Assembly: GCA_965231155.1 (NCBI GenBank)
Contig: OZ246418.1
Location: 238,850-302,849, forward strand
Direction of reading: 5' to 3'
Source of the DNA: an uncultured Candidatus Saccharibacteria bacterium
GTDB lineage: Bacteria; Patescibacteriota; Minisyncoccia; UBA6257; 2-01-FULL-56-20
Length of the DNA: 64,000 nucleotides
The translations under genes and the position numbers were made by a program. Within the stretch, counting starts at the first letter, position 1. Every line of letters starts with the position of its first letter. This document shows positions 6,700-64,000 of the stretch, one piece after another. The notes below the pieces were generated by a model. It saw only the letters and a list, made by a program, of their open reading frames with translations. It was not told where the DNA came from and made no database searches.

Positions 6700-6709
6700 A
6701 TTCCGCTTA

Positions 6710-8467
6710 TTATACTACTTCCGCTTGGTAGCATGACTCACAGTAAACAATCTCCGGGCGGTCTGGTGCGTAGGAGGTTTCAAAATGTTCGGAGCAAGGA
6801 GTAGCTCCGTGGACGTGAGAGGCATTGTTTTTATAACCATTTTTTCTTGCTTCTTCACCACCACACTCACACTGACGCTCAAAGTAGCGAGGCGGATTAA
6901 CCAATGACGCCCGACGAGCAGCACGACACGGCACGCAGGTTCTTGGTAACGGCAGATTCATCTGTCGTAAAAACTGTAATTCAGAAGCAATGATCCTATA
7001 GGCTCGCTTGCATGAACTGCACTGAATCAATTCCTTTAAAATCTCCTCGCTTACCTCCGCAATGGTCGCTGGCAAACTATCAGCCGTACGTGTTGTCTCG
7101 TACTCTCGGACATCTGGATCTCGCCAAAAAACATTCTTTGCCGTAGCTTCTTCTTTAGTTAAAGGGAAGATTTCTTGGCGGGCGGTTTCATTATAGGCAA
7201 ACGGAGAAAACTCATCAGGACAAAATTCGCCATACTTATATATATTTCCCTTTGCATCCTTATAAGGCAATGCATTCATCTGCTCGATAATCTTCGGCAC
7301 TAAACGTTCGTACTCTTCTTTCGTGTACTGTTTATTCAAGATACAGTACTGCTTTTTCTTCAGAGAAACGCACCCAAAACAATCGGAAGATGAGCGACAG
7401 AAGAATGCGTACTCCATCGCCCGACATGAGGGCCAGGACTCAAAGCAAAACTTTTCCTGATTACATTGATCACCACAGGTCAGACACTCATACATCTGCG
7501 TGGCATTATTCCCCCAAGGACCATAGTCGTAACAGTCTTTTGTGCCAAGGTAAATATTATAAAGATACTTACTGTCCTGGGCGTCGTCTACAAAATAACT
7601 CGACTTCACATTCTTTACATTGTGTAGGTAATCCCCACTCGAATCAATAATCCGAAATCCCCGATAATATTTATTTGGAAAGGCCAGAGAAAACTCCCGA
7701 GTCTTTTTGAGCGCTGTCTGAAGACCACTCCAGGAATCTAGTTTCAGTTCGGCTATCTTTTTTTCATACTCCTCTTTACTGTACTGCTCATTAAAGAAGC
7801 AAAATGACTTCCCTCGTTGATTTACGCACCCGAAACAGTTCGTGCAGTTGGTACAGTTTTTAGAAAACCAGACATCAACACAGGCTTCGCAGTCCTCGGA
7901 AAATACTGTGCGATAGGAGTTATTCACCGACACGCACTCATACGAAGACTGGTTATCATTAGAAAGGGCGCAGTCAAAACAGGCGGTACACGCCGTACAC
8001 TGAGTTGTATAGGCCGAATCTTCCATGCGGTCACCATTAAAACAGAGATAGCAATTTTTAAAATAACCAGCCTGGTCACAGTAGTCAGAATTAACCATCC
8101 CCTGCACACTCTTCGATGGCCAGGGTACGGAGTAGAGCAGCTCTCTGAACTGTTCAAAGAAAGGACGAGAGAAATCATACTCGCGACCGTACTGGAGCGG
8201 GTCCCAGGCGTCTGATTTCCAGTACTCGTGATCGTAGACCGTGCTTTGAATGTTCGGTGGAAAGCCAGAAAATATCTCTTTCCCAGAAGCATCATCTTTC
8301 CGTCGAAAAAGTAGCCGGCCGTTCCGCCAGGCCAGACGCCGTTTTAACCGACACTCTGGACAGAAGGTCGGTGGAGGCACAGCCATCTTTTCATAGAATC
8401 CAAAATCTTGCGGTTCAATACTGAAATTCGCTTTGCAGTTTTGGCAGGTGCGGTTTTCTGATTCCAT
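6710..8467 (-). CDS. Cysteine-rich multi-zinc-ribbon protein, paralog B
   Basis: 585 aa, same architecture and motif order as 4996..6699; identical C-terminal 'ETSYAPDRPEIVYCE(Q/S)CYQAEVV'. Confidence 0.6.
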   Translation of the reverse strand: MESENRTCQNCKANFSIEPQDFGFYEKMAVPPPTFCPECRLKRRLAWRNGRLLFRRKDDASGKEIFSGFPPNIQSTVYDHEYWKSDAWDPLQYGREYDFSRPFFEQFRELLYSVPWPSKSVQGMVNSDYCDQAGYFKNCYLCFNGDRMEDSAYTTQCTACTACFDCALSNDNQSSYECVSVNNSYRTVFSEDCEACVDVWFSKNCTNCTNCFGCVNQRGKSFCFFNEQYSKEEYEKKIAELKLDSWSGLQTALKKTREFSLAFPNKYYRGFRIIDSSGDYLHNVKNVKSSYFVDDAQDSKYLYNIYLGTKDCYDYGPWGNNATQMYECLTCGDQCNQEKFCFESWPSCRAMEYAFFCRSSSDCFGCVSLKKKQYCILNKQYTKEEYERLVPKIIEQMNALPYKDAKGNIYKYGEFCPDEFSPFAYNETARQEIFPLTKEEATAKNVFWRDPDVREYETTRTADSLPATIAEVSEEILKELIQCSSCKRAYRIIASELQFLRQMNLPLPRTCVPCRAARRASLVNPPRYFERQCECGGEEARKNGYKNNASHVHGATPCSEHFETSYAPDRPEIVYCESCYQAEVV

Positions 8468-8494: not shown

Positions 8495-9094
8495 TTAACT
8501 GCGAATCATGCCCGCCTTCTGCAGTATCTCGTACTGATTAGGATTAAAACGTTTGATATACTCGATAATTTTTCCGGTTTTTCTGACCTCGGTGGAAATA
8601 CCTTTCTCCTCTAGGAAAGCGAGAATCTTTTTCTCGGCTTCTTCGGCTTTTAAGGCATCCTCGACCATGAGCTCAACCTCTCCTAGCTCAAAGCCAAAGT
8701 CTGCCTTATCAAGATCAACTGCAAACTCCTGATTCCTATATTTTCGACGCGTGGAGACAACTCGGCAAAAGACTGTATACCCACAAGCCTGCAGTTCTGT
8801 CTCGAGGGAAGATTCTTTAGGTAAATCGAGAGCAGTTTTTATTGCTTCGTCATCCTCAAGCTCTTCATATTGATTAGCTTTTCGCTTATCAAACTCCCAT
8901 TCATTATTAACTGGTTTTTTCAGTTCGAACCTCCCGTTTCTTTTTCTTAACCAAAAGTCCCGAGTGGTCAGTCCGTAATCTGCGGTATCATAATAAGCAT
9001 CATCAATCGTCTTTTCAGAGAGGAGCTGGGCTCCTTCGATTAATTTTTTCTCAGCTTCTCCCTCTAAGCTCACTTTTATTTCTACTTCAATCAT
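8495..9094 (-). CDS. CYTH-domain protein (thiamine-triphosphatase-like triphosphate tunnel metalloenzyme)
   Basis: N-terminal 'IEVEIKV' ExExK motif; 'DAYYDTADYGLTTRDFWLRKRNGRFELK' resembles ThTPase/CYTH core. Confidence 0.7.
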   Translation of the reverse strand: MIEVEIKVSLEGEAEKKLIEGAQLLSEKTIDDAYYDTADYGLTTRDFWLRKRNGRFELKKPVNNEWEFDKRKANQYEELEDDEAIKTALDLPKESSLETELQACGYTVFCRVVSTRRKYRNQEFAVDLDKADFGFELGEVELMVEDALKAEEAEKKILAFLEEKGISTEVRKTGKIIEYIKRFNPNQYEILQKAGMIRS

Positions 9095-9103
9095 ACTTAG
9101 TAA

Positions 9104-9667
9104 CTATTTCTGACGGAGCTGATAGATTTGAGTATCGTAGCCTCTTTTCTCTTCGTCACCACGAGATAATCCTAGAGATTCTAAGGCTAGGAAAAGATCT
9201 TCTTGCACTTGTCCCGGATCAATGTCGTCAGTGGTTAGCTTCTCAAGCTCCACAAACGAACCAAGCTCCGCAACCTCATCAAGACAGATCTCATATTCTC
9301 CAAACCTTCCTTTGCGACGAACTTTTTTTACTTCAACTTGCGGTCGATAGCCCATAATTAATAATATCTGATGAATCGCCTCCGGGTCTTTGACCTCTGA
9401 TTCATACTCAATGTTGTCTAACTCGCTCGAACGTTGTTGCTTGAGATTAAATTCTGCTTTGCCATCTTCACGACGAATTCGAACTACGACATGACCAGTT
9501 TTTGACTCATCCCACTCATGGGTACTTCCTCCGAAAGAGTAGATAACATCGTGCTGATGGATGGGCGCCGAGAGAAAGCAACCTCTTTTTTCAAGCTGAG
9601 TCTTCAACTCCTCGAGACTGGAGACCCTCAGTTTAATTTCGATCTCACGCATATTTTTTGAAAACAC
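9104..9667 (-). CDS. CYTH-domain protein (CyaB-like class IV adenylate cyclase / triphosphatase)
   Basis: 'REIEIKLRV' ExExK motif; 'ILLIMGYRPQVEVKKVRRKGRFGEYEICLDEVAELGSFVELE' matches the CyaB fold pattern. Confidence 0.75.
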   Translation of the reverse strand: MFSKNMREIEIKLRVSSLEELKTQLEKRGCFLSAPIHQHDVIYSFGGSTHEWDESKTGHVVVRIRREDGKAEFNLKQQRSSELDNIEYESEVKDPEAIHQILLIMGYRPQVEVKKVRRKGRFGEYEICLDEVAELGSFVELEKLTTDDIDPGQVQEDLFLALESLGLSRGDEEKRGYDTQIYQLRQK

Positions 9668-19204: not shown

Positions 19205-19245
19205 GATAAAAAACCGCACGCCTCGAAAGTGAGGGGGGCGGATTA
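19205..19245 (-). terminator. Terminator (member of a repeated AAAAAACCGCAC(R)CCTCGAAAGTGAGGGGGCGG family)
   Basis: Hairpin plus T-run on the minus strand after the SPFH stop; near-identical copy at 20400-20433. Confidence 0.55.
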
Positions 19246-19324
19246 GTTCAGAGGAAAAATATAAAAGAAAAAGCCCAGAACAGCGATTGCTGTTCTGGGC
19301 TTTAAAAAGGATGTGTCTCTGTCC

Positions 19325-20284
19325 TTAGGCCTGGGCAGAGACTCCAGCCGAAGAAGCGTCGTGGTCCCTCCCGTTGGCCTTAGCGTTTGCCATCGCATGT
19401 TGCATGGCAGAGATCTTCCCGATGTCGAACTCGCCGCCCATCCCCATGGGAATGACGACAACATTGCCCGGACCGTTGGCGGCGTCGCGGATGGTATCAC
19501 GCATGTCCATCCGTTCGAGAAGACCCATGATCTCAGCGTGATTGAAGTCATCGCCGAGTGCTGCCTTCATCCCATCGACGACCGTTCTCCGTTGTTCGAT
19601 GTAGGACTTGGCACGAATCTCCTGTCCCTCGGCATGAGCCCTCGCCTCGCCGAGGATCTTCGCCCTCTTGGCGTTGGCTTCGTTTTCTGCCGCCTCGAGT
19701 TCACGTTTCGAAGAAATGACGCGATCAAACGCGGCGCGAACTTCATCGCTGGGCTGGGGTTGGTCGACGAGCACACTCACGACCTCCTGGCCATACTGTT
19801 CGAACCGCTCCTTCAATGCATGGAGAACAGCGTGCTGGAACTCCTCGCGAGAAGAAAAGACTTCCTCCATCGTCATGGTGTTGGTGTGAGCTCGGACGAA
19901 GTTCTCGATGTAGGACATGATCTGCTCTTCGGAATCCTGAAGCTCGTAGACAGCTTCATAGACCTTCTCGAGTAAGATCTTCAGTTGCGCCTTGATCGGA
20001 ATGATCAAGAATGCATTGTCCTTCGTCTTCACGCCGATCTCCTTCGCAAGCTCGTAGGTTCTGAGGTCAGCCTCATCTGCAACTCGACCGAAGGGGAAGG
20101 GCATCTTGAACGATAGTCCCGCCTCCCGATAGCCGACGTACCTGCCGAGGACCTCGATCATCTTCACCGTCTTCTGTTGTGTGATGACGATGCAAGTACT
20201 GAGCCATCCCATGATGACCGACAGGATGATCGGTCCGAAAACCCACCACAGGTTGAACACCTCTTCCTCGTACCCGTTTCGCAT
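19325..20284 (-). CDS. SPFH/band-7 (stomatin/prohibitin/HflC-like) membrane protein
   Basis: N-terminal TM, SPFH core, C-terminal coiled coil 'ELEAAENEANAKRAKILGEARAHAEGQEIRAK'; GC-rich. Confidence 0.8.
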   Translation of the reverse strand: MRNGYEEEVFNLWWVFGPIILSVIMGWLSTCIVITQQKTVKMIEVLGRYVGYREAGLSFKMPFPFGRVADEADLRTYELAKEIGVKTKDNAFLIIPIKAQLKILLEKVYEAVYELQDSEEQIMSYIENFVRAHTNTMTMEEVFSSREEFQHAVLHALKERFEQYGQEVVSVLVDQPQPSDEVRAAFDRVISSKRELEAAENEANAKRAKILGEARAHAEGQEIRAKSYIEQRRTVVDGMKAALGDDFNHAEIMGLLERMDMRDTIRDAANGPGNVVVIPMGMGGEFDIGKISAMQHAMANAKANGRDHDASSAGVSAQA

Positions 20285-20399
20285 GTTATTACCTTTCTGT
20301 TATGTTCTCGGCCCGCCGAATGGTCAGGACTTACAAGAAATTGCTATTGCATATTATAAATTATAAAATTAATTATGTCAAATAAGTTGGTAACTAAAT

Positions 20400-20433
20400 A
20401 AAAAAACCGCACACCTCGAAAGTGAGGGGGCGG
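20400..20433 (-). terminator. Terminator, second copy of the repeated hairpin
   Basis: aaaaaaccgcacacctcgaaagtgagggggcgg, about 90% identical to 19205-19245. Confidence 0.55.
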
Positions 20434-20676
20434 TTAACAAATAAACTTATTTAAAGGCTGAACAGTGGCAAGATCGACTTCTGCCTCCCTTGAATCGGTT
20501 TCCGGACAAGCAGCCCTAATGAGCTTGGTAACCGTGAAGCTGAAATTGATGTCTGCACCGCAGCCACTACAGGTACCAATACCAATCATCTCTCCGCTAG
20601 AAGACAGAAACAACTGAATCCGAGAGACCTCTCCACACCCCTCATGAGTAAATGATACTGGGTAAAACGTGACCAT
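20434..20676 (-). CDS. Hypothetical Cys-containing small protein
   Basis: 80 aa, 'GTCSGCG' motif. Confidence 0.3.
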   Translation of the reverse strand: MVTFYPVSFTHEGCGEVSRIQLFLSSSGEMIGIGTCSGCGADINFSFTVTKLIRAACPETDSREAEVDLATVQPLNKFIC

Positions 20677-20759
20677 ACACTCCTCCCTGTATCGTTAGAC
20701 TACTTACAGTATAAACAGCTTCTTCTTTTTTAACTAACTTAAATAGAAACCTCATTAGA

Positions 20760-20800
20760 AAAGGGGCTTTTGCTTTTCCACAACGGGTTTAAGAAAAAAT
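20760..20800 (-). repeat. Partial copy of the repeated terminator module (core TTTTCCACAACGGGT)
   Basis: gcttttccacaacgggtt just downstream of the gpmA stop. Confidence 0.4.
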
Positions 20801-20819: not shown

Positions 20820-21446
20820 CTAGACCCGCTCCTCGTTCAGTCCCCGAACTTCTTTAGCCAAAACTTTTCCTTCCTGATCAAGTTCGTAGATATGTACTTC
20901 GCCGGTACCGATCTCTAACTCAGCCACCGCCTCGTCACTCACTCCTTCTAAATATTTCATTAGTGACCGCAAACTATTCCCGTGAGCAACAACAAGCGTG
21001 TTTAAATTATTTTTTATCTTAGAAAAAACCTCGGATGTGTAGTATGGCAGCACTCGAGCATACACCATCTCTAAACTTTCTCCGTTGGGAATTGGTTCAT
21101 CCCAGCTCCGACGAATCCTCTGAAAGACTTCATCGCCAACCAGTTCTTTAATCTCCCATTTATTTTTTCCCGTATAATCGCCATAATCTCGCTCGTTCAG
21201 CGCATGGTGCGATTCTACAGGAATATCCTTATCATCTCGCACAGAGAAAATACCTTGTAGTGTTTCCTTGGCTCGTTGCAACTCGGAAACGTATGCGTGG
21301 TGGATGGGAATATCTTGCAAAACATTCCCGGCTCGTTTTGCTTCTTCGATGCCCTCTTCTGTTAACGCAACATCAGTTTGTCCAGTCCACAAACCAAGCT
21401 TGTTCCATTTTGATTTTCCGTGTCGAACTAAAATAAGGTAAGCCAT
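20820..21446 (-). CDS. gpmA: 2,3-bisphosphoglycerate-dependent phosphoglycerate mutase
   Basis: 'LILVRHGKSKWN' catalytic His motif; start chosen at MAYLILV, 5 nt after the eno stop. Confidence 0.85.
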   Translation of the reverse strand: MAYLILVRHGKSKWNKLGLWTGQTDVALTEEGIEEAKRAGNVLQDIPIHHAYVSELQRAKETLQGIFSVRDDKDIPVESHHALNERDYGDYTGKNKWEIKELVGDEVFQRIRRSWDEPIPNGESLEMVYARVLPYYTSEVFSKIKNNLNTLVVAHGNSLRSLMKYLEGVSDEAVAELEIGTGEVHIYELDQEGKVLAKEVRGLNEERV

Positions 21447-21450
21447 AGCG

Positions 21451-22728
21451 TTACAACAAAAACCGCGAGAAGACCCCTTTCTCGCCAAGCGCTTCTTCGA
21501 TACGAAGCAACTCATTATATTTCGCCGTGCGATCACTGCGACTGACTGATCCAGTTTTTATCTGACCAACACCTAAGCCCACTGCCAAATGGGCAATCGT
21601 CGCATCCTCCGTCTCTCCCGAACGATGCGATAATACCGCCCGCCAGCCAGCCTGATGTGCCATCTCCACCGCCGCAATTGTTTCTGTTAATGTGCCAATC
21701 TGATTTACTTTAATCAAAATTGCATTGGCTGATTTTTCTCGAATACCACGCTCTAAAAATTTTGTATTCGTCACAAAAAGATCATCGCCAACAAGCTGAA
21801 TCTTCTTTCCCAATCGTTCAGTCATTTTCTTCCAACCATCCCAATCGTCTTCGGCCAAGCCATCTTCAATCGAAATAATTGGATACTGATCAATGAGCGA
21901 TGTATACCAATCAATCATCTCCTCCGAAGAAAACACTTTGTTTTCTCGATTAAGATGATATGCCCCGTCTTTGTAAAGCTCCGACGAAGCAACGTCGAGC
22001 GCCAGCGCAATATCCTTGCCCAACGTGTATCCTGCAATCTCTACAGCTTCGGCAATGAGATCTAACGCTTCTTGATTTCCTTGTTTCACATGTGGCGCAT
22101 ATCCTCCTTCGTCACCAACGGTCGTTCCATATCCTTTTTTCGTTAATACCTTTTTCAAAGCATGAAATACATTCACCATCGCCTCAAGCGCCTGATGCGA
22201 CTTCCCAAAACCAATCGGCACAATCATAAACTCCTGAATGTCTGTTGATCCTGCCGCATGTTTTCCGCCGTTAATAATATTGCAGAGTGGCATCGGCATA
22301 AGCGGTGGTCGTTTCTCCTCCATCAGATCCTCAATATACTGGAACAGCGCTCGGTTTTGCGATTTCGCAGTGGCGTGCGCATTCGCTAAAGAAACCGCTA
22401 AAATCGCATTCGCCCCTAATCGTTTTTTATTTTCTGTACCATCAGCCTTAATCATAAGGCGATCGATTCCGGCCTGATCTTCAGAATCCTTCCTGACTAA
22501 AAGATTATTAATTTCTTCCTTAATATTTTTGACTGCCTGCAACACACCCTTTCCTCCATACCGCGTTCCCCCATCACGCAACTCATGCGCCTCGTAGGTT
22601 CCCGTTGAGGCACCAGACGGCACCGCCGCCCGACCGATAGTTCCGTTTTCTAAAATAACATCCGCCTCCACCGTTGGATTTCCTCGTGAATCTAAAATCT
22701 CCCGAGCAATAATTTTTTGTATCTTCAT
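21451..22728 (-). CDS. eno: Enolase
   Basis: Full-length enolase signature including 'SHRSGETED' and 'IKVNQIGT'. Confidence 0.95.
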
Positions 22729-22849
22729 ATATAAAAAGAAAAATAAAAAAAGCGTCCGACACGCAATATGGAATTACTATAATGTTCGTTGTCTTAGAAA
22801 TCAACAACGCCCGTAGAATGAGATGGACTTCATCTATCTATCAAGTTAT

Positions 22850-22920
22850 TTCAGTCATTTCTGAGTAGGCGAGCAATAAAAAAACTCTCAATAATAGAGG
22901 GTCTTTTAATTTCCCACTCC
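22850..22920 (-). repeat. Repeated intergenic terminator module, copy A
   Basis: TCATTTCTGAGTAGGCGAGCAATAAAAAA-hairpin-TCTTTTAATTTCCCAC; overlaps the stop of 22906..23925. Confidence 0.6.
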
Positions 22921-23925
22921 CTCATTCGGTACCTCGTCTTTGGTTATCCTGAATGTGGATAGGATTGCTTGAAGATCGTAACTGCGTGTGGTCAACACAT
23001 ACATCGAAGCTTTACTCATCATGTATGCCGCCTTATAAGACCCTATCAGTGAATTTTCTTCATACACCGTATTCGGACGATCCCCAATTCCTTCCCTTAC
23101 AATTGATTCGGAGTTATCAAGGATCCCGTAGCGAGAGATATCTATGCCATCGAACTCCCTTACTACTTCCCCATTCTCCGTTACGCCTCGTCCGATACTC
23201 GGTTCCCTGGCTGGATCGTAGACCAGTAATCCAAAGTGAGTAGATCCTTCTAGCTTAAAAATGCCTTGCTTTTTTAGATCCACCACAAAGTTCGAGGGGT
23301 ATTTAAACTCAAATCCAAAATCATTATTTCTATAGGTTTTCCAAGTTGAAGTTTCGGGAGATAAATCAAGAGAGTAGTGCTTCTCCGGTATGCTTTTCAC
23401 TAGGAGATCAAAAACCTTAAGAATATCTGGGCGGATGCTTTGAGTTAATAAGTAATCTGTTCCAGGATCGGTGCCTAGGACCAAATCCCCTACAATCTCA
23501 CACCTTGTCTGCGGATTCTTTTTCCTAAAATATGCGCAGTTATTATTCATCCCTCCTCCATATACTACAATCTGATCTTCGTCATACTCACTCGCTTCTC
23601 TCTTTAGGATGTCTGGAGGGGTAAGAATGACTGCTTGTAATGGACTATCTTTTCCTGCAGTAAGACCACCCTCTATTAACATGAGTGGATGACGAATCTC
23701 TTTTACATTCCAACTACTCGGATACTGAAAAACGAAGTTCGTATACTCACTCTTGAACTTATCGAATGTTTTCCATCCTAATCTTGAACCCTCAATACCA
23801 CCCACCGCTACCGGCTCCTCTCCCCAACTATTCCAGACATTAATCCCAAGAAAGCATGCTACGGGGATGCCAATAACAATTATTAAGACGATGAGAATAC
23901 GCTTGATCGAAATCCCTTTATTCAT
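22906..23925 (-). CDS. Membrane-anchored hypothetical protein
   Basis: TM helix 'ILIVLIIVIGIPVACFLGI' then a ~300-aa extracytoplasmic domain; start taken at MNKGISIK because the track GTG start lies inside repeat copy B. Confidence 0.5.
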   Translation of the reverse strand: MNKGISIKRILIVLIIVIGIPVACFLGINVWNSWGEEPVAVGGIEGSRLGWKTFDKFKSEYTNFVFQYPSSWNVKEIRHPLMLIEGGLTAGKDSPLQAVILTPPDILKREASEYDEDQIVVYGGGMNNNCAYFRKKNPQTRCEIVGDLVLGTDPGTDYLLTQSIRPDILKVFDLLVKSIPEKHYSLDLSPETSTWKTYRNNDFGFEFKYPSNFVVDLKKQGIFKLEGSTHFGLLVYDPAREPSIGRGVTENGEVVREFDGIDISRYGILDNSESIVREGIGDRPNTVYEENSLIGSYKAAYMMSKASMYVLTTRSYDLQAILSTFRITKDEVPNEGVGN

Positions 23926-23940
23926 GAAGCTAAGTATACC

Positions 23941-23992
23941 AAAAGACCCTCTATTTATGAGGGTCTTTTGTTTTTCCACAACGGGTACCCAG
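23941..23992 (-). repeat. Repeated terminator module, copy B
   Basis: Perfect 8-bp hairpin agaccctc-tatttat-gagggtct + TCTTTTGTTTTTCCACAACGGGTA. Confidence 0.6.
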
Positions 23993-24068
23993 AAAAAATA
24001 AAAGAAACTTCGTTTCTCTTCGCTATCATCAAAATGAGTGGAACTAAAATTTCGCCAGTTCTCACTCT

Positions 24069-24512
24069 TTACTTTGGGGAAGCAGCCCTCTTCCTTAAAT
24101 TATCCAAAGCCACTCCAACTAACGCCAGTATAAATAACTCTGCCGAACTAACGGCAATAAATTTCTCATGTTTATTCTGATAAAATTCTTCCCTGTCCGA
24201 CTGCTCGTCAGAAATACGAGTTCCTAATATTCTATCCATTCTTTCTGCCGCTACTCCTCTGATTCGATCCGAAGTAGTCATAAGAGCTTCACGAGTAGGA
24301 AACAGGCGCTGCATCTTCCCTAAGATTTCTTCCTCTCTATCGCTGGGCACCTGATGACTTTTGAAATCATAGCCTTCTTCTCTAAACATTAACGTGATCG
24401 CTGTCAGTAGACTGTCTCCATCTTCTGCATCCTCTAGCATTGAAACCCAAGAATTCTCATCTAGACGATCCCCTTCTTCTGGACTGCCTACCTCTGAAAT
24501 TTTTTCTTTCAT
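24069..24512 (-). CDS. Hypothetical acidic protein
   Basis: Start at MKEKISEVG preceded by TTGAAT-18-TAATAA; no known domain. Confidence 0.4.
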   Translation of the reverse strand: MKEKISEVGSPEEGDRLDENSWVSMLEDAEDGDSLLTAITLMFREEGYDFKSHQVPSDREEEILGKMQRLFPTREALMTTSDRIRGVAAERMDRILGTRISDEQSDREEFYQNKHEKFIAVSSAELFILALVGVALDNLRKRAASPK

Positions 24513-24597
24513 TTTTTTTATTATGCCACACCTCCCATAGAATTCAAGTTGGCGAAAATAGAAATGGTTCACAGAATATTAAAACAGCCCTCAAATT

Positions 24598-24682
24598 GGC
24601 CGTTTCGTTCATTTCTGAGTAGACGCGCAATAAAAGACCATCATTAATAGAGGGTCTTTTACTTTTCCACAACGGGTATTTG
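24598..24682 (-). repeat. Repeated terminator module, copy C
   Basis: CCGTTTCGTTCATTTCTGAGTAGACGCGCAATAAAAG-hairpin-TCTTTTACTTTTCCACAACGGGTATTTG. Confidence 0.65.
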
Positions 24683-24694
24683 CAAAGTAATTGG

Positions 24695-25126
24695 CTATTT
24701 TGGTACCGTTCTGAACTTTGGAAGCTTGTCGTGGATTTGATAGTAGTCTCCTTTGTTTTTAGTGAAGATGTGAATACCTTTTTTGATCTTTATTTTTCCG
24801 TCAATGAGTCCTGCTAGAATATATATCTTTGAGCTGCCCTGGTAATCCCAAGTAATTGGAGATCCACAGTTATTACAAAAGGTTCTGGCTACCTTTGGAG
24901 ATGATTTATATTTCTTGATAGTTTTACCTGTTACAGAAATTGACTCTCGTGGAGCAGCCAAAAATGCTCCGTGCATACCATAGTTTTTACGACACTGTGT
25001 ACAGTGACAAAACCAGATGTTATCAAAGGGGTTTTTGAGTTTGAAACGAACCTTACCACAAAGACACGATCCGCTCAGCATTTCCTTCTTTTGTCTCATT
25101 GGCTGCATATGAAAATCATAACACAA
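24695..25126 (-). CDS. GFA/CENP-V family zinc-binding protein (glutathione-dependent formaldehyde-activating-like)
   Basis: 'CLCGKVRF...CHCTQCRK...CNNCGSP' Cys pattern typical of the GFA domain. Confidence 0.65.
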   Translation of the reverse strand: MCYDFHMQPMRQKKEMLSGSCLCGKVRFKLKNPFDNIWFCHCTQCRKNYGMHGAFLAAPRESISVTGKTIKKYKSSPKVARTFCNNCGSPITWDYQGSSKIYILAGLIDGKIKIKKGIHIFTKNKGDYYQIHDKLPKFRTVPK

Positions 25127-25199
25127 CCCTTTTCCTCAAGAGTTTGCATAGGGTACAGAGGTGAAACTGAAAGAACCGTTTGAGAGGGTGTGTGGAAAT

Positions 25200-26474
25200 C
25201 TATTGATCTAGGATTGGTTTAGAATTTAATACCTCCGGAGGGAACTTTCTCCACTTACCTTTTCTTCCGGAAACCATATGCCTTAAAACCATGTGTTCTG
25301 CCTCATCCGAATGGGTTCGAGAGCTCGTTGGCCTAGCTTCTTTCATAAACTTTTCTATATTTTCTTTTAATGTCTTCTCAGTTTCAGGATTTATTTTATC
25401 CGTGCCATCGAACTTTCGTGTATAACTTTTCATCTCTCTCCATGTTTGTGACATGTATTTATCCCATAGTCTCGTTGTTAGAAATGCTGTGTCATCAGGA
25501 GGACAAGGAGCAAAACTTACAACGCCTCTACTTTTAATTTCCTCGGGTAGGTGATCGTAATGATCATTCAATCTTGAAAAGTCATTTTTCAGATCTTCGC
25601 CACGCACAAATGTCTGATCCTCGCGCATAAAAAGAGGGGCTATATTGATGTGTAGTTTATCACTCGAGGTGAAAATGTTACAAAACGGTAAGTAGTACAA
25701 ATAGGATATATCAATTTTGTGAGTTTGTGGGTGAGCAAATGATTCAAATAAATTAGCAGCTGTTCCCATAGAGAAAAAAAGATCCACTGAAAAAATATAA
25801 GAGAAGTATGGAGCAAACTCACTTATAGGTTTTGAGCCAGAAAGTTTCCATCGCTCCAGTACCTTCATCCGAGCTTCTCTAATTACTCCCAAAGAACCCA
25901 TCGCAGAATCTATGGCACTTTCATCAGCCATTTCTTTAGCAATATAATCAACATGGCCTTTTAATTCTTGAAATGATCTTGGTCTACCAATTACCGTGAA
26001 TATTTTTTCAAAGCCCGAATAATCCTCTATTTTTGAGGCAGCGATTTCTTTCCTCCAATTTTTTGCAATATTTCTTTCTATATCTAAAAATTGCCTATTT
26101 CCCCATCTTTTTGAAGCCTCCATCTCTGGAGAATCCTGAAATATTACTCCGGTCTTGCCCTCAAGCTCTACGGTCTTCCCGCCAGAAATAATAGGCCTTC
26201 CGGACATCTCTACTTTTTCATATCCCAAAAGCTCACCAGCAATCAAAGATTGGTGATGGACCGCAACGCAACTCATGTCTGGTGTTTTGCGAGCGATACT
26301 TCCAACTACATCTTCGGGTAGCCTCCCTTTACGAACTTCTTTTTCTAAGTCGGCTAGAGTTTCTACAAAAAATAGAGGAGTTATGTTGTTTAGATAGAAA
26401 TTTTCTAACCACATAGACTCATCATCACTCAGCCCCTGTAAGGCAGATTTATCAAATATAAGAGACGGACCCAT
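25200..26474 (-). CDS. Hypothetical protein (424 aa)
   Basis: Long ORF, no recognisable motif; followed 8 nt later by a small secreted-protein gene. Confidence 0.5.
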   Translation of the reverse strand: MGPSLIFDKSALQGLSDDESMWLENFYLNNITPLFFVETLADLEKEVRKGRLPEDVVGSIARKTPDMSCVAVHHQSLIAGELLGYEKVEMSGRPIISGGKTVELEGKTGVIFQDSPEMEASKRWGNRQFLDIERNIAKNWRKEIAASKIEDYSGFEKIFTVIGRPRSFQELKGHVDYIAKEMADESAIDSAMGSLGVIREARMKVLERWKLSGSKPISEFAPYFSYIFSVDLFFSMGTAANLFESFAHPQTHKIDISYLYYLPFCNIFTSSDKLHINIAPLFMREDQTFVRGEDLKNDFSRLNDHYDHLPEEIKSRGVVSFAPCPPDDTAFLTTRLWDKYMSQTWREMKSYTRKFDGTDKINPETEKTLKENIEKFMKEARPTSSRTHSDEAEHMVLRHMVSGRKGKWRKFPPEVLNSKPILDQ

Positions 26475-26482
26475 CTTTTCTG

Positions 26483-26821
26483 TTATGTATTTCTCTTAGG
26501 ATCAACAACAATAATTCTTCCTTTTGGATCAATTCTTGCCACAAGTTTGGTTCCAATGTGATCGTTTATATAATCAGCTCTGACCAAAACAGCCCAGCTA
26601 CTTCCTGTCATAGCAAGAGCATACTGAAGCATTTCCGCTCCGTCTTCCACGCTCACAGACTCTTCTTGTTTTTCCGGCCGCTTCTGAGGTTCTAGGCCAA
26701 AAGAAATTACGGTTTTATTGGGCTGGCCATTCTGGGGGATTGAGCTGGTTATTTGACCACCCCAACCCATCACGGCAAGAACAGAAAGGAAAGAGGCTAA
26801 TTTGGCTTTAACATTTTTCAT
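26483..26821 (-). CDS. Small secreted protein
   Basis: Signal peptide 'MKNVKAKLASFLSVLAVMGWG'. Confidence 0.45.
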   Translation of the reverse strand: MKNVKAKLASFLSVLAVMGWGGQITSSIPQNGQPNKTVISFGLEPQKRPEKQEESVSVEDGAEMLQYALAMTGSSWAVLVRADYINDHIGTKLVARIDPKGRIIVVDPKRNT

Positions 26822-26926
26822 GACGACTTGATTCTATACCCTGCTCCCAGAATCACAAATCGTCTGACTGGATAAACTGTTTATTCGTTCGGGGAATAAA
26901 AAAGCCGCACTCTGAGAGAACGGCTA

Positions 26927-27283
26927 TTACTTGCTGGCCATGTAGAGAGGGACGCTATCGGCCAAATCTTGAGCGCTAATGCCCAGCTCCTCTGCAAGCT
27001 TCACGGCATTGATGAACATCTTTACCGTAGCTTCTTTGAGGATGGCGTTGTCCATGTGCTCGCTGCCAGCATGATCCCAGCGCTCACATTCGGCTGCCAG
27101 TTTTCCTATGGATTTGCACATATGGAAAACGCTATGACCGACGACGAATACCTTCTTCTGGCTAGGAGAGGCTACCCCTAGCGTTGGGTAGTGCTCCGGC
27201 GTGAAGGTATACCGTGCACCGATATATTCCATGATCTTAGTTAGATCAGTTGATTGAGACATCATTACCCCTTTCGCTGTCAT
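26927..27283 (-). CDS. DinB/YfiT-like (DinB_2 superfamily) protein
   Basis: His-rich four-helix pattern 'GHSVFHM...WDHAGSEHMDNAIL'; conserved promoter/leader module upstream; true start probably the internal MMSQS after the AAAGGGG Shine-Dalgarno. Confidence 0.5.
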   Translation of the reverse strand: MTAKGVMMSQSTDLTKIMEYIGARYTFTPEHYPTLGVASPSQKKVFVVGHSVFHMCKSIGKLAAECERWDHAGSEHMDNAILKEATVKMFINAVKLAEELGISAQDLADSVPLYMASK

Positions 27284-27412
27284 CCTTATACATCAACCAG
27301 AAGCTTGGTTCAACTCCGGTCATCTCTCAGACCATTTCGTTCATTTCTGATTAGGCACGGAATAAAAAACCCTCATAAATAGAGGGTCTTTCATTTTTCC
27401 ACAACTGATACT
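27284..27412 (-). repeat. Repeated terminator + promoter/leader module, copy D (extended form)
   Basis: About 90% identical to 28887-29015 over ~125 nt; contains the ccctc/gaggg hairpin + T-run, then TTGAAC-17-TATAAG and a Shine-Dalgarno. Confidence 0.7.
27285..27313 (-). promoter_or_regulatory. Sigma70-like promoter TTGAAC-17nt-TATAAG inside module D
   Basis: Identical -35/-10 hexamers and spacing conserved in module E. Confidence 0.5.
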
Positions 27413-27415
27413 TAG

Positions 27416-27440
27416 GTGGAGATGGACGGACGGTAGTGGA
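27416..27440 (-). repeat. Direct-repeat copy of the tmRNA 3' end (att-like remnant), copy 3
   Basis: GTGGAGATGGACGGA matches the ssrA 3' end 14/15; the following CGGTAGTGG is shared with copy 2. Confidence 0.55.
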
Positions 27441-27454
27441 AATAGATTCTGTTC

Positions 27455-28273
27455 CTATTCCTTAGGAAGCAGAAACTTGGTTTTGTCCGGTGACAGCAAT
27501 TCTAGCGAAGGGACAACAAATAGCTTGTCTTGCATCTTTGAGTAGTCGTAACTGGTGTTTGTAATCTCATCAATATCAAACGGCCTCCTCAAAACTTCAG
27601 AAGAGAAGGCGTGCTCTATTTCTCCCAATGATGACAGAAGTCCCGCTCCAAATGCTTTTATTCCTTCTTGCTCCTGAACTAAACCGAATTCAACCACAAA
27701 CCAATAGAGACGTTCGAGTTTTGTTATCTCCTCATCATTAGCTGTCCAGGCCAATTTCCCCAGACGTTCAGAAAAATCGGAAAACTCTTTATTCATAAAC
27801 ATTGGAACATGTCCGATTAGTTCGTGAATAATATCTGGCTCGGGAGTGTACTCGGGTTGTGAGCCGTGCCTAATGTACTGAGTACAAAGCATGGTTCGCT
27901 CTCCAAGATAGCTCAAAAAACTTCTGGCATCCACCAGACCTTCTACAGGAGCTAGTCGAAAATTTGCTTTTCGCTCTAACTCTTCCGAGATGTCTTTGAG
28001 CTGAGGAATTCTATCAGGTGATATACCAAGTTCTTTTTTCGCTTCTAAATACACTGATGACGCGTGAACTCTGTGTAGTTTCTCCAGCTTACTAACAACA
28101 AACTCCCAAACCTCGTTTTCTTCTTTGGTGTAAGAAACTGCTGGAATAGTTTTTGCCTTGGCATGTTGCTTGGATAACAAAGCAATCTCATTTCTCCGAG
28201 CTCGGTATTGTTTGTCATTTACCCCAGGATGATCCAGTGGAAGGATAGCTATGTTTTTGTGTTGTATATTCAT
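27455..28273 (-). CDS. phhA: Phenylalanine-4-hydroxylase (biopterin-dependent aromatic amino acid hydroxylase)
   Basis: 'CTQYIRHGSQPEYTPEPDIIHELIGHVPMF' iron-binding HExxGH region and overall PAH catalytic-domain colinearity. Confidence 0.8.
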   Translation of the reverse strand: MNIQHKNIAILPLDHPGVNDKQYRARRNEIALLSKQHAKAKTIPAVSYTKEENEVWEFVVSKLEKLHRVHASSVYLEAKKELGISPDRIPQLKDISEELERKANFRLAPVEGLVDARSFLSYLGERTMLCTQYIRHGSQPEYTPEPDIIHELIGHVPMFMNKEFSDFSERLGKLAWTANDEEITKLERLYWFVVEFGLVQEQEGIKAFGAGLLSSLGEIEHAFSSEVLRRPFDIDEITNTSYDYSKMQDKLFVVPSLELLSPDKTKFLLPKE

Positions 28274-28291
28274 AAATAAAAATTAGTAAAA

Positions 28292-28320
28292 AAACCGCCC
28301 CTGGATTAAAGAGGCGGTTG
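28292..28320 (-). terminator. Terminator
   Basis: ccgcctctttaatccaggggcgg hairpin plus T-run on the minus strand. Confidence 0.5.
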
Positions 28321-28476
28321 TATATTCGTAAGAAAGTGTTCGTTTAACAATACGAAGGAACCCCGCCGTAGGTGGTGTAGTAATAAGAAAAAATGAACAA
28401 TCTCATTGTCATTAGTTTTATCCTACATAATATAAAACACACAAGCAAGTCTTTGCTAGTCTATCGACTAACAGAG

Positions 28477-28500
28477 TGTGGAGATGGGCGGACGGTAGTA
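28477..28500 (-). repeat. Direct-repeat copy of the tmRNA 3' end (att-like), copy 2
   Basis: TGTGGAGATGGGCGGA is 16/16 identical to 29858-29873 at the ssrA 3' end. Confidence 0.6.
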
Positions 28501-28505
28501 GGAAT

Positions 28506-28535
28506 AAAAAAACCGCGCCTAGAAAGGGACGGCTA
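28506..28535 (-). terminator. Terminator after the zinc-ribbon gene
   Basis: ccgtccctttctaggcgcgg hairpin plus T-run on the minus strand. Confidence 0.5.
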
Positions 28536-28886
28536 TTTCTCTTCTACATCCTCCGGGAAAGGGAGACGTTGGCCATGAAGCCTCGCCAAATCGTTGAATG
28601 CTTTTCGATCCGCAGCGGTCATCGGACTGTTGAGTCTGTAGATCGGAGCAATCTGGTTGATTTGGTCTTCCGTCATGCCCGTGGTGTCCACCTGAGGCAG
28701 TGGCCGAACTGGTGGCTCCATCCCAGTTACCACATCAAGCCCACGACCACAAACACAAGTGAATCGACCATGATCATCTTCTGGGAACATCTCTGCTCCG
28801 CAACCAGGACACCTTGGGTTTCCATTCTGTCTGACATATCTATCAGTTTCATCCCAATACGACATGACAACCTCCCTCGCTGTCAT
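28533..28886 (-). CDS. Small zinc-ribbon protein (hypothetical)
   Basis: 'CPGCGAEMFPEDDHGRFTCVCG' ribbon; the conserved leader favours start at MTAREV or the internal MSYWDE after the AGGGAGG Shine-Dalgarno. Confidence 0.45.
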   Translation of the reverse strand: MTAREVVMSYWDETDRYVRQNGNPRCPGCGAEMFPEDDHGRFTCVCGRGLDVVTGMEPPVRPLPQVDTTGMTEDQINQIAPIYRLNSPMTAADRKAFNDLARLHGQRLPFPEDVEEK

Positions 28887-29015
28887 CCTTATACACCAAC
28901 TAGAAACTCGGTTCAACTCCGGTCATCTCTCAGGCCGTTTCCTTCATTTCTGGGTAGGCGCGCAATAAAAAACCCTCACTAACAGAGGGTCTTTTACTTT
29001 TCCACAACGGGTATT
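28887..29015 (-). repeat. Repeated terminator + promoter/leader module, copy E
   Basis: See copy D; hairpin ccctc-actaaca-gaggg, core TTTTCCACAACGGGTATTTG. Confidence 0.7.
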
Positions 29016-29022
29016 TGGGTGA

Positions 29023-29265
29023 TTAATGCTCCTCTCGCCACTTTCGGCGTAAATCCATTAGGGATAATTCCTGGCTATCTATTTCTTTTTGCTGAATAAA
29101 CACTGGGGACCAATCATCATGACTAATACGATTTCCCTCTCCATCATAGGTAGTACTCCCCATTCTTTTTGTTTCTAAGCCCATAGCCCCAAAGCCCTTA
29201 GCATTACTGTTCATAAAAAAAACTTCTCCTTGCTGAGTTTCAGGATGCACAAATTCTTTTTCCAT
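29023..29265 (-). CDS. Hypothetical small protein
   Basis: 80-aa ORF between the 29315 terminator and module E. Confidence 0.35.
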   Translation of the reverse strand: MEKEFVHPETQQGEVFFMNSNAKGFGAMGLETKRMGSTTYDGEGNRISHDDWSPVFIQQKEIDSQELSLMDLRRKWREEH

Positions 29266-29314
29266 TCTTGTATTATATCATCGGTTCGACCTCTGGATAT
29301 CTCTTAAATAAAAA

Positions 29315-29345
29315 GGCCCCTAGTAAAATACTAGAGGCCCTACCT
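29315..29345 (-). terminator. Terminator
   Basis: gggcctctagtattttactaggggcc hairpin plus T-run on the minus strand. Confidence 0.5.
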
Positions 29346-29358
29346 AATCCCAGCCAGT

Positions 29359-29682
29359 TTACGAAAGAACCTTCACACCGGCTTGAGAAAATGCCTTGAT
29401 CTCCTCGAGGACGATCCGGCGTATCGTCTCGTCGTGAATAGTAATGTCTATCCACGGCTGACAAAGTCGTCCGCAAACGCCAGTCGTAGTGAGGAGTGGT
29501 TGTTTGCGCCAGAACCGTTTCCTCCTGGAAACGTGATGAAAGGTACTCGACATCACGCCGATACCGTCATCATTGTTCGTTTGGTGAATCACAAGGGGCT
29601 CACCGAACAAAGCTTGACTCCGGCTGCAAATCCTCGCCAACACTCCAGCAGTCAACGCATCAAAATCTTCGTTTTTAGACAT
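29359..29682 (-). CDS. Hypothetical protein (first gene downstream of ssrA)
   Basis: Start MSKNEDFD with an AAGGAG Shine-Dalgarno and TTGACT-17-TATAAA promoter; terminator after the stop. Confidence 0.45.
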   Translation of the reverse strand: MSKNEDFDALTAGVLARICSRSQALFGEPLVIHQTNNDDGIGVMSSTFHHVSRRKRFWRKQPLLTTTGVCGRLCQPWIDITIHDETIRRIVLEEIKAFSQAGVKVLS

Positions 29683-29858
29683 CCACATCTCCTTACTGAC
29701 TGTTTTATACACTTTTTAAAACATTTAGTCAATATAGCCTCTCCTTTTTAGATTTTCACAACTTCCTCCCACACTAAGTACCCGTTTATCCATCACCCTT
29801 TCCCGTCATCCTCCGCCCTGCAATAAAAAATAACCCAACACGTGGGTTATTTTTTATT

Positions 29859-30191
29859 GTGGAGATGGGCGGAGTCGAACCGCCGTCTAAAGATGAAGGT
29901 CGCGGACCTTCTACGAGTGTAGTCTAGTGAACTAGGCAAATCGATCCATATTTTTTAGTCCCGGAAGCATGAATCAAACTTTTCGGGACGAGCTTCCTTA
30001 TATAAGACCAGGACTAACCTAAGAAGCCCAGGCTAGCTGATCCTCCACCGAGCTAGGCTCGGCTTAGCTTACGCAAAAGCGAAAGCTGGAGCTGCAACGC
30101 GTTGGTTGGCAGTATTGTTTTTTGCCGGTTTAATGAGTCAGCGCTCAACTCGCCAGTTCGGACATCATCTCTATCGAAGCCGGTCATCCCC
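29859..30191 (-). ncRNA. ssrA: tmRNA (SsrA), standard one-piece
   Basis: 5' GGGGAUGACCGGCUUCGA...; 3' tRNA-Ala-like end GGCGGUUCGACUCCGCC-CAUCUCC-A with a G3:U70 pair; tag frame GCC AAC CAA CGC GUU GCA GCU CCA GCU UUC GCU UUU GCG UAA (ANQRVAAPAFAFA*). Confidence 0.85.
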
Positions 30192-45904: not shown

Positions 45905-45911
45905 AATAGGG

Positions 45912-45983
45912 TGCGCCCGCTTGGAATCGAACCAAGGACCCACGTCTTATAAGGGCGTTGCTCTACCACTGAGCTACGGGCGC
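45912..45983 (-). tRNA. tRNA with anticodon UAU (Ile, AUA-decoding) by hand fold
   Basis: Acceptor GCGCCCG/CGGGCGC, D-arm GCTC/GAGC, anticodon stem ACGCC/GACGT (one mismatch) with loop CTTATAA, T-arm CTTGG-TTCGATT-CCAAG. Confidence 0.7.
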
Positions 45984-46017
45984 AATATTCTTAGTGTACT
46001 ACGCAAAAATCAGAAAG

Positions 46018-59307: not shown

Positions 59308-59407
59308 GGGAATTTCTGTTTTATTTTTGGTTGTGTATATCTGAAACGCTCACGAAAGAGTCGGTTTTGCCCTATAATATAGAAGGTGGAATACGTTTCG
59401 CCCTCTT

Positions 59408-63810: not shown

Positions 63811-64000
63811 CGATCTACTTTCTCCACTAAACTACACACACCTACATGCCAGAAGATACACAAATGACCAATGAAGAAATCCGCGAGATGCTTGTCACGG
63901 CACCAGTCTGGGACAGTATTGTGTGGGATGCTATTCAGGAAGGAGATTACGCGCTCGTAGAGTCTCGTTTTGCAGATCTTCTTAAGGGTGAGTTGGAAAG

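Follow-up and report, generated by a model that had tools for sequence, protein, structure and literature searches.

Tandem genomic islands at ssrA, the gene for transfer-messenger RNA (tmRNA), have been described in Dehalococcoides. They carry 20-bp direct repeats with a conserved motif just upstream of each, and insertion occurs in the T-loop (PMC3146451). A 540-aa serine recombinase of the CcrB family, DsiB, is encoded next to attL, and some units have no integration genes and are read as cis-mobilisable or fixed (PMC3146451). In the Islander scheme, an island consists of an intact tRNA gene (tDNA) plus a displaced 3' fragment of it (PMC4383910). T4-type phages carry promoter early stem-loop (PeSL) motifs, between which homologous recombination is proposed and in which a -10-like hexamer lies in the hairpin loop (PMC2839356, PMC4122927). 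Here we describe a locus in a 64-kb stretch of contig OZ246418.1 (the window) in which ssrA borders an array of small, co-oriented genes separated by two families of repeated terminator-promoter modules, T1 and T2. The array combines features of the ssrA islands with features of the phage modules.

The host is a bacterium of the candidate phyla radiation (CPR, Patescibacteria) with a genome of ~0.8 Mb. CPR bacteria have very small genomes and are thought to rely on host-derived resources; how they sample accessory genes is poorly understood. The window has a GC content of 45%, and its enolase shares 67-72% identity with enolases from Kaiserbacteria, Paceibacterota and further CPR metagenome-assembled genomes. 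Together with 18 kb of flanks (L021 and L024; 10 kb on the left, 8 kb on the right), ~82 kb of this genome was read, about 10% of its ~808 kb. The locus was compared with those of four relatives: L010, the closest genome available (enolase 93% identical), L020, L027 (57%) and L028 (52%), the last two percentages referring to the protein encoded beside ssrA.

We read the locus as an ssrA-anchored plasticity zone of mostly single-gene units, insulated by T1 and T2, in which genes are gained by integration at ssrA and by recombination between modules. The probability of this reading is put at roughly 55%. It draws on the anatomy of the repeats, their confinement within the sampled DNA, att scars, the lack of a local recombinase, gene content that is not conserved, and synteny breakpoints at the modules. 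From these we infer terminator and promoter activity, recombination at the modules and a recombinase acting in trans.

The strongest mechanistic clue, which had gone unnoticed in the preliminary description of this DNA, ties the locus to ssrA-specific integration. The tmRNA gene named there is matched by Rfam at full length, though not called by ARAGORN. Its last 16 nt, TCCGCCCATCTCCACA, recur twice in the array in the ssrA orientation, once exactly (16/16, fossil r1) and once with 14 of 16 positions (fossil r2). Both fossils are preceded by ACTACCG, an element-side motif that is not part of ssrA, and by a further similar stretch. By chance, 0.31 matches to the ssrA end would be expected at three or fewer mismatches, and none in the configuration of r1 and r2. 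The two fossils are att-type scars of past ssrA-specific site-specific integration in this clade. In the genus-level relative L028, a T2 terminator is followed by ACTAACG and TCCGTCCATCTC 3.6 kb downstream of ssrA (homologous remnant and terminator, 5595-5651). Scans of viral sequences for the fossil motif returned nothing.

The native ssrA terminator and the element downstream of it align with the sequence that follows ssrA in L020 and with the flank that was displaced in L027. This conserved element of ~50 nt, GGCGGA..CGAACGGGAAAGGG..GGGAAACGGGAG, lies just past the terminator at 29765-29812 (minus strand) in the window, ~9300-9345 in L020 and ~3160-3215 in L027. Its start reads as an inverted, degenerate T-arm/acceptor end of ssrA. 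The element may belong to the attB region or represent a small RNA.

T1 is a module of 85-160 nt. Repeat finding and MAFFT alignment gave five full copies (A to E) and one partial copy (F) between 20.7 and 29.0 kb, all on the minus strand (Table 1). Read on the gene strand from 5' to 3', T1 begins with the 5' motif (C)AAATACCCGTTGTGGAAAAG. A hairpin follows, made of AAAGACCCTC, an AT-rich loop of 7 nt, GAGGGT and a T-run (stem GACCCTC/GAGGGTC), and then a conserved tail, ATTGCGCGCCTACYCAGAAATGAA-GAAAYGG. The copies are 60-92% identical to copy C, and the 21-mer CAAATACCCGTTGTGGAAAAG is found exactly at 24662-24682 and 28997-29017 and with three mismatches at 20773-20793, against an expectation of 0 in shuffled sequence. 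Copies D and E have 161 nt in common at 84% identity, including a TTGAAC-17-TATAAG promoter, a Shine-Dalgarno (SD) sequence and a start codon. Their extension past the tail, ~75 nt at 96% identity, runs through this promoter and the SD to ATG-TC, while in copies A, B and C the promoters after the common terminator differ. The preliminary description had reported a repeated module in at least five spacers and in part in a sixth, its promoter-bearing extension in D and E, and genes exclusively on the minus strand between eno and the tmRNA. All three statements stand, the last for the credible genes between 20.4 and 29.7 kb in the open reading frame (ORF) list and gene tables, which share the strand of ssrA. 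The common MTA(K/R) codons it saw at the start of the genes behind D and E are most likely 5' untranslated region (5'UTR), the D/E homology ending at ATG-TC, where the gene calls start.

The predicted hairpin energies are -18.2 kcal/mol for copy E, -19.7 for D, -14.0 for C, -19.7 for B and -8.0 for A, and copy F forms no hairpin; the z-scores of B, D and E are -4.6 to -5.8. By these folds, T1 copies decay with growing distance from ssrA. A structured-RNA gene was considered for T1 and rejected: Rfam at a permissive threshold gave spurious hairpin matches and no family, and the hairpin is without covariation. At ~85 nt, repeated between genes and with a hairpin inside, T1 recalls the Correia or RUP-type repeats and could also be a non-autonomous transposable element of the miniature inverted-repeat (MITE) type that lands in intergenic regions. 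Alignment of the copies revealed neither terminal inverted repeats (TIRs) nor target-site duplications (TSDs), all copies lie in one orientation within one 8-kb neighbourhood, and no transposase was found nearby; a MITE-like origin is very improbable.

A profile search with nhmmer found no further T1 copy in the 64-kb window or the 18 kb of extra flank. Placed uniformly in 82 kb, six copies would fall within a span of at most 8.3 kb with a probability of ~6e-5. This clustering bears on the possibility that T1 is a genome-wide, lineage-specific family of terminators or intergenic repeats without a role in mobility, its cluster being a sampling effect. The core of T1 is indeed an ordinary A-tract/hairpin/T-tract terminator, and two copies adjoin housekeeping genes, F after gpmA and A before eno. 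The T2 terminators, common across genera, show that terminators can be conserved in this clade, and ~90% of the genome lies outside the DNA that was read. Yet the other ~74 kb, with dozens of gene ends, hold no copy beside the six in 8.3 kb, the conservation of T1 runs 30-100 nt past the hairpin into sequence that is not terminator, and synteny breakpoints coincide with T1 copies. A generic terminator family is therefore unlikely. Exact-pattern scans for T1, which returned not even the source genome, gave six unrelated single matches in GTDB representative genomes, at the level of chance, only two in JGI metagenomes, both within coding sequence of a soil organism of high GC content, and none in IMG/VR. 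T1 is not known outside this lineage, because the collection scans gave chance matches only.

Copy E matches copy C at 100% in the 5' motif and 90% in the tail, and copy D at 96% in the extension, where C is unrelated. Copy E is thus a mosaic of C-like and D-like parts, a likely sign of recombination between T1 copies. The genes g9 and g11, which follow D and E, have no detectable similarity to each other despite flanks that are homologous on the 5' side (161 nt, 84%) and terminators that are homologous on the 3' side. An alternative is that a single ancestral unit (T1, small gene, terminator) was duplicated locally, segmentally or in tandem, and that the copies then diverged and their ORFs turned over, with no ongoing mobility and no link to ssrA. 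The equal lengths and homologous flanks of the units D-g9-terminator and E-g11-terminator fit such an origin, as does the lack of polymorphism in the population; at 60-92% identity the T1 copies are not recent. Duplication alone fails to explain different ORFs within homologous flanks, however. The cassettes are heterogeneous in composition, the zone has no genes common to the relatives, and the ssrA fossils show site-specific events at the locus. We consider this origin improbable.

The 5' half of T1 may hold a promoter of its own, the motif GTTGTGGAAAA serving as the -35 box and the hairpin loop supplying the -10, an arrangement described for PeSLs (PMC2839356, PMC4122927). The sequence GTTGTG(G)AAAA-N-TAAAA, with a TATAWW-like hexamer at 17 nt, is also the promoter of g13. 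The same arrangement precedes a gene in L028 (TTGTGG-17-TATAAC, an exact 14-mer match), where the T1 5' motif CCCGTTGTGGAAAA is found once in the ssrA-downstream array in the same orientation, at 6412-6399. Transcripts begun at such a promoter would miss the 5' arm of the hairpin and escape termination, while read-through from upstream would terminate. The motif was also compared with an inverted ssrA end, as a serine-recombinase half-site. This was rejected: the match is 8/9 nt only, and the motif adjoins a fossil only in copy D.

T2, the second module family, is a terminator of ~30-38 nt, CCGCCCCC..GAGGTGTGCGGTTTTTT. In the window, each T2 copy is followed by a TTGACA promoter, and two copies form a direct repeat around the Band_7 gene (Table 1). 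The Band_7 unit is the clearest case of a single-gene insertion bracketed by a duplicated module. Such bracketing is the outcome expected if a circular cassette with one module copy recombines with a resident copy. Four T2 copies, each after a small gene, lie in the ssrA-downstream array of L028 (1779-1815, 3654-3690, 5163-5199 and 5615-5651). The unit formed by gene g1 and T2 is conserved between the window and L028, and T2 is common to genomes whose neighbouring proteins are ~52% identical. L028 was tried as an 'empty site' for the Band_7 insertion and rejected: g1-T2 is kept, but the neighbours are rearranged and the site is not clean. Viral scans for T2 gave nothing.

The borders of the zone are conserved in L020, L027 and L028: one consists of Trypsin_2 and an alpha/beta-hydrolase, the other of n243, UDG, o127 and ClpB. 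Trypsin_2 is 73% identical to its L020 counterpart. The interval from Trypsin_2 to ssrA measures 14.5 kb in the window and 7.9 kb in L020, and none of its genes is common to the L020, L027 and L028 loci except g1, which has a homologue in L028. With L010, only eno-gpmA is common to the zone. Homology starts at the -35 box of eno, ~30 nt from the end of copy A, and stops ~10 nt past the gpmA stop codon, short of copy F by ~10 nt. Upstream, L010 carries another gene, whose terminator is unrelated, and its 5.5 kb of available sequence lacks T1. As a separate observation, a relative with 81% identity (L019) carries an extra 110-aa gene between the 5' end of ssrA and n243 (330-662), so that the other side of ssrA is variable too.

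Independent Logan short-read assemblies of three samples all end at T1 copies C, D and E (24686, 27418 and 28988-29018), because ~34 nt are identical between these copies. This gives some ground for suspecting an artefact, a chimeric order of segments from contigs joined at the repeats. The exact common stretch of ~34 nt is below read length, though, each copy has unique flanks and diagnostic differences, all inter-module segments are identical in the three samples, and the repeats exist in any order of the segments. An assembly artefact is extremely unlikely. Automated binning could easily drop or mis-order this region.

Recombinases of the relatives are of the serine type. In L027, a 536-aa ORF with Resolvase and Zn_ribbon_recom domains, whose best NCBIfam match is CcrB, overlaps the 3' end of ssrA with its own 3' end. 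The terminal bases of ssrA are found displaced ~6 kb away, together with the native terminator and the conserved downstream element. The L027 recombinase ORF runs antisense into the ssrA 3' end (island at 3091-9462 of L027), and the cargo of the island includes Fic, a small terminase subunit, a Cys-rich secreted protein of 406 aa and a LOOT RNA (RF03000, 83.6 bits). Two differing ssrA-end fragments are present in L027, at ~3285 and 3091-3112.

With serine-type recombinases in the relatives, a co-oriented array of unrelated genes, and a conserved 5' motif found once more in the L028 array, T1 could be the attC-analogue site of a dedicated integron-like system of a new type, its recombinase being encoded elsewhere in the genome. 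This is quite unlikely. No recombinase gene was found in 82 kb, T1 has a GC stem of 7 bp instead of an extended imperfect palindrome, the cassettes have their own promoters, the L028 motif is the -35 of an ordinary promoter, and the divergence of the copies is unstructured, without a conserved core-site pattern. The preliminary description had seen neither an integrase nor attC sites, and none was found here: no integrase gene in 82 kb, only the 7-bp stem and no GTTRRRY core. Its term 'gene-cassette accretion site' remains apt for a hypervariable zone beside ssrA with unrelated, mostly lineage-specific genes; no evidence points to an integron-like mechanism with the module as its site. The comparison with relatives that it envisaged agrees with such a zone, the gene content of the window and of L010 differing exactly at copies A and F.

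In the plasticity-zone reading, T1 would act as a composite transcriptional insulator. Its A-tract/GC-stem/T-tract intrinsic terminator would halt the upstream unit, and its promoter sequence would restart transcription for the next gene, with the full promoter, 5'UTR, SD and ATG in D and E. Genes would be gained by two routes. In one, ssrA-specific integration of small elements would have left the two displaced ssrA 3' ends with their element-side motif; as the recombinase is gone from the locus, the units would be decayed islands, or integrase-less, cis-mobilisable units served in trans. In the other, recombination within T1 or T2 repeats would insert, delete or replace the gene between two copies, duplicating the module. 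T1 and T2 are probably also homology tracts for the gain and loss of cassettes.

Several observations weigh against this reading. No tyrosine or serine recombinase (Phage_integrase, Resolvase) was found among window ORFs of at least 150 aa (Pfam) or in the gene tables of the 18-kb flanks. The window holds no recombinase pseudogene either, tblastn with the L027 recombinase matching nothing beyond its overlap with ssrA. The native ssrA terminator and downstream element, displaced in L027, still adjoin ssrA in the window, so that r1 and r2 cannot simply stem from the two most recent integrations into the present ssrA. The elements may have brought their own copy of the flank, recombination may have restored it, or the fossils may have come with imported DNA. 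Of the six T1 copies, only D adjoins a fossil. The confinement of T1 refers to ~82 kb of a ~808-kb genome, and copies A and F have a housekeeping operon, eno-gpmA, between them. The collection scans yielded no sister genome with T1, so presence or absence of a cassette at a module was not seen directly, and protein look-ups in same-population samples (n=3) recovered a single arrangement. We know of no circular or excised forms, and the promoter and terminator functions come from consensus matching and folding only.

A more far-reaching version is doubtful, and is offered as a tentative possibility. T1 and T2 might serve ultra-small CPR genomes as parts of a system for exchanging cassettes without a local integrase. 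The modules would provide insulation and homology for circularised single-gene cassettes at one ssrA-side locus, or would be sites of a serine recombinase acting in trans. Such a system would be a cellular counterpart of phage PeSL shuffling, with modules such as T2 common across genera.

Nearly all units of the array have their own promoter-like site and terminator by consensus matching and folding, so that the array is a string of monocistronic 'moron-like' units. The GC content at third codon positions is 0.33-0.59 in the cassettes and 0.71 in Band_7, as compared with 0.45 +/- 0.06 in core genes. Two families named in the preliminary description were recovered with Pfam, the GFA domain (1.7e-21) and phenylalanine hydroxylase, the latter with NCBIfam as well; g9, there called 'DinB-like', has no match in Pfam, NCBIfam or PDB. 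For the eight ORFs other than GFA and phenylalanine hydroxylase, no family was found in Pfam, NCBIfam, PHROG or PADLOC. Comparison of the cassette proteins with PHROGs, PADLOC and viral-contig proteins gave no match and so lends no support to a prophage or defence-island reading. The 7.1-kb array had no BLASTN match in collections of plasmids and phages. Among 5.8e9 proteins, g4 matches itself and otherwise shows weak partial matches (7-33% of its length). The promoter of g13, GTGAAA-17-TATATT, holds a degenerate T1-like GTTGTGAAAA motif, and the gene has its own terminator (29313-29341); its status is uncertain because it is absent from the Logan gene table.

Table 1. Features of the array and its borders, with positions in the window
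Feature	Position	Strand	Description
T2 direct repeat flanking the Band_7 gene	zone 19208-20438; copies 19208-19237, 20401-20430	-	97% identity
Band_7 gene	19325-20284	-	GC-rich; perfect TTGACA-17-TATAAT promoter and own terminator
T1 copy F (partial)	20748-20799	-	5' motif intact, hairpin lost; starts ~10 nt past the end of L010 synteny
eno-gpmA	20820-22728	-	housekeeping pair inside the variable zone, between copies A and F
T1 copy A	22836-22932	-	decayed hairpin; 5' part forms the final 8 codons of g4; eno -35 box, the start of L010 synteny, ~30 nt downstream
g4	22906-23925	-	339-aa membrane-anchored ORFan
T1 copy B	23907-23995	-	strong hairpin; diverged tail overlaps the start of g4
g5	24069-24512	-	147-aa ORF, no family match
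T1 copy C	24590-24686	-	followed by a different promoter, TTGAAT-16-CATAAT, for g5
g8, g7, GFA-domain gene	24695-26821	-	g8, 112 aa, signal-peptide-like
g7	25200-26474	-	424 aa
g9	26927-27262	-	111-aa ORF, no family match
T1 copy D	27258-27418	-	terminator, promoter, 5'UTR and ATG of g9; abuts fossil r2
Fossil r2	27415-27437	-	ssrA 3' end, 14/16 (27415-27430), and ACTACCG; abuts T1 copy D
Phenylalanine 4-hydroxylase	27455-28273	-	Pfam Biopterin_H 5e-83; NCBIfam equivalog NF008877 above cut-off
T2-like terminator, then fossil r1	28477-28532	-	r1 (28477-28499), exact 16-nt ssrA 3' end (28477-28492), ACTACCG before it
g11	28533-28865	-	110-aa Cys-rich (zinc-ribbon-like) ORF, no family match
T1 copy E	28861-29021	-	5' motif, hairpin terminator, tail, TTGAAC-17-TATAAG, SD, ATG of g11
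g12	29023-29265	-	80-aa ORF, no family match
g13	29359-29682	-	predicted 107-aa ORF, no family match
Native ssrA terminator and downstream element	29765-29856	-	AACCCACGTGTTGGGTT and T-run, then conserved element GGCGGAGGATGACGGGAAAGGG...
ssrA (tmRNA)	29857-30191	-	Rfam RF00023, 111.5 bits, full length; 3' end (29857) faces the array

Phenylalanine 4-hydroxylase is the sole gene between r1 and r2. Upstream of it lies a leader ORF of 22 codons, MTMRLFIFSYYYTTYGGVPSYC, with five Tyr and two Phe (28343-28411, minus strand), and a strong terminator (28293-28319, minus strand) stands between the leader and the start codon of the enzyme gene. Leader and terminator look like a Tyr/Phe-sensing transcription attenuator for an enzyme that turns Phe into Tyr; folding gives the terminator, and no clear antiterminator is predicted. 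The g7 protein belongs to a widespread uncharacterised family that counts 1826 cluster representatives at E<=1e-3 and 504 at E<=1e-30; no model for it exists in Pfam, NCBIfam, PHROG or PADLOC.

Further observations concern the rest of the window. From 57436 to 64000, and on into L024, lies a type IV secretion-like cluster (TrbL_3, PrgI, TraC-like, VirB4-like ATPase) preceded by three large ORFs without a family match. The cluster may encode an apparatus for conjugation or DNA uptake, which would bear on cassette movement. A tRNA-Ile with anticodon TAT (UAU) was called by both ARAGORN and Rfam at 45909-45984 (minus strand). The UAU anticodon is an uncommon bacterial way to read AUA. Two tandem large paralogues (567 and 585 aa, one with a treble-clef zinc finger) and two tandem CYTH-domain genes occupy 4996-8467 and 8495-9667 on the minus strand, and a homologue of the large paralogues adjoins the g1-T2 unit in L028.

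The locus suggests that one insulated site beside the essential tmRNA gene gathers single-gene units. It would join ssrA-specific integration by serine recombinases, so far characterised in Dehalococcoides, with terminator-promoter modules of the kind seen in phages. If confirmed, ssrA-island biology would reach a new phylum, and the locus would be the first cellular example of PeSL-type modular exchange. T1, T2 and the ssrA fossils would then be a simple signature for such zones in other streamlined genomes.

Set against known systems, the locus does not qualify as an integron, as it showed none of the three defining features examined. It resembles one in its co-oriented, unrelated small genes, with a recurring hairpin element between them, at a single accretion locus. 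However, no IntI tyrosine recombinase was found beside the array in 82 kb, and there is no attI or Pc and no attC, which is an imperfect palindrome of 55-140 nt with R''/L''/L'/R' and GTTRRRY. The T1 stem is a single 7-bp GC stem with A/T pairs, its GTTGTGG misfits GTTRRRY, and there is no second inverted core. Cassettes here have their own promoters and terminators, whereas integron cassettes are mostly promoterless and depend on Pc. REP/BIME, Correia/NEMIS, RUP and ERIC repeats are genome-wide, occur in both orientations and often have TIRs and TSDs. Like these families, T1 is a short intergenic repeat with a stable hairpin that could end or start transcription; unlike them it is clustered, uni-directional and without TIRs (within 82 kb).

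Like morons and tDNA islands, the units are autonomous promoter-gene-terminator blocks between resident genes. Unlike phage morons, they have no prophage context, scans of PHROGs and viral contigs being without matches. Among the features of tDNA and ssrA islands, the locus has an intact tmRNA gene at one end, a displaced 3'-end repeat and an interruption of synteny; it lacks an integrase inside the island and a native flank displaced together with the repeat.

The likeness to PeSLs extends to composite repeats of a predicted sigma70-like promoter and a stem-loop terminator that flank ORFans in a hyperplastic region, and to modules that reach from the stop codon of one gene to the SD and start codon of the next, fully so in D and E and with another promoter in A, B and C. 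In PeSLs, indels and replacements between relatives have their breakpoints at the motifs; here both L010 breakpoints lie 10-30 nt from A and F, though L010 itself has no T1 in its available 5.5 kb. Unlike PeSLs, T1 lies in a cellular CPR chromosome (eno, gpmA, ClpB, tRNA, tmRNA) without PHROG matches. It is longer and far more conserved (85-160 nt, 60-92%), in D and E a clear promoter stands downstream of the terminator and is not interleaved with it, and no mini-circles, the circular recombination products of PeSL exchange, are known here. By analogy, the locus would work most like PeSL-mediated modular shuffling, in a cellular genome.

The ssrA islands of Dehalococcoides differ in several respects. 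Units here measure 1.0-1.4 kb with one to three small genes, no integration module is present in 82 kb, the native ssrA terminator and downstream element are not displaced, the phylum is another, and the T1/T2 terminator-promoter repeats have no described counterpart there. In both, the target is a single-copy tmRNA gene with the crossover in the T-loop region, direct repeats of 16-22 nt from the ssrA 3' end are displaced downstream in tandem, and a short element-side motif that does not align with ssrA stands directly before each repeat. In both, the site is the main hypervariable zone of a small genome, and the relative L027 has a 536-aa CcrB-like recombinase abutting ssrA. The locus is a variant of known island-accretion sites, not a new kind of system.

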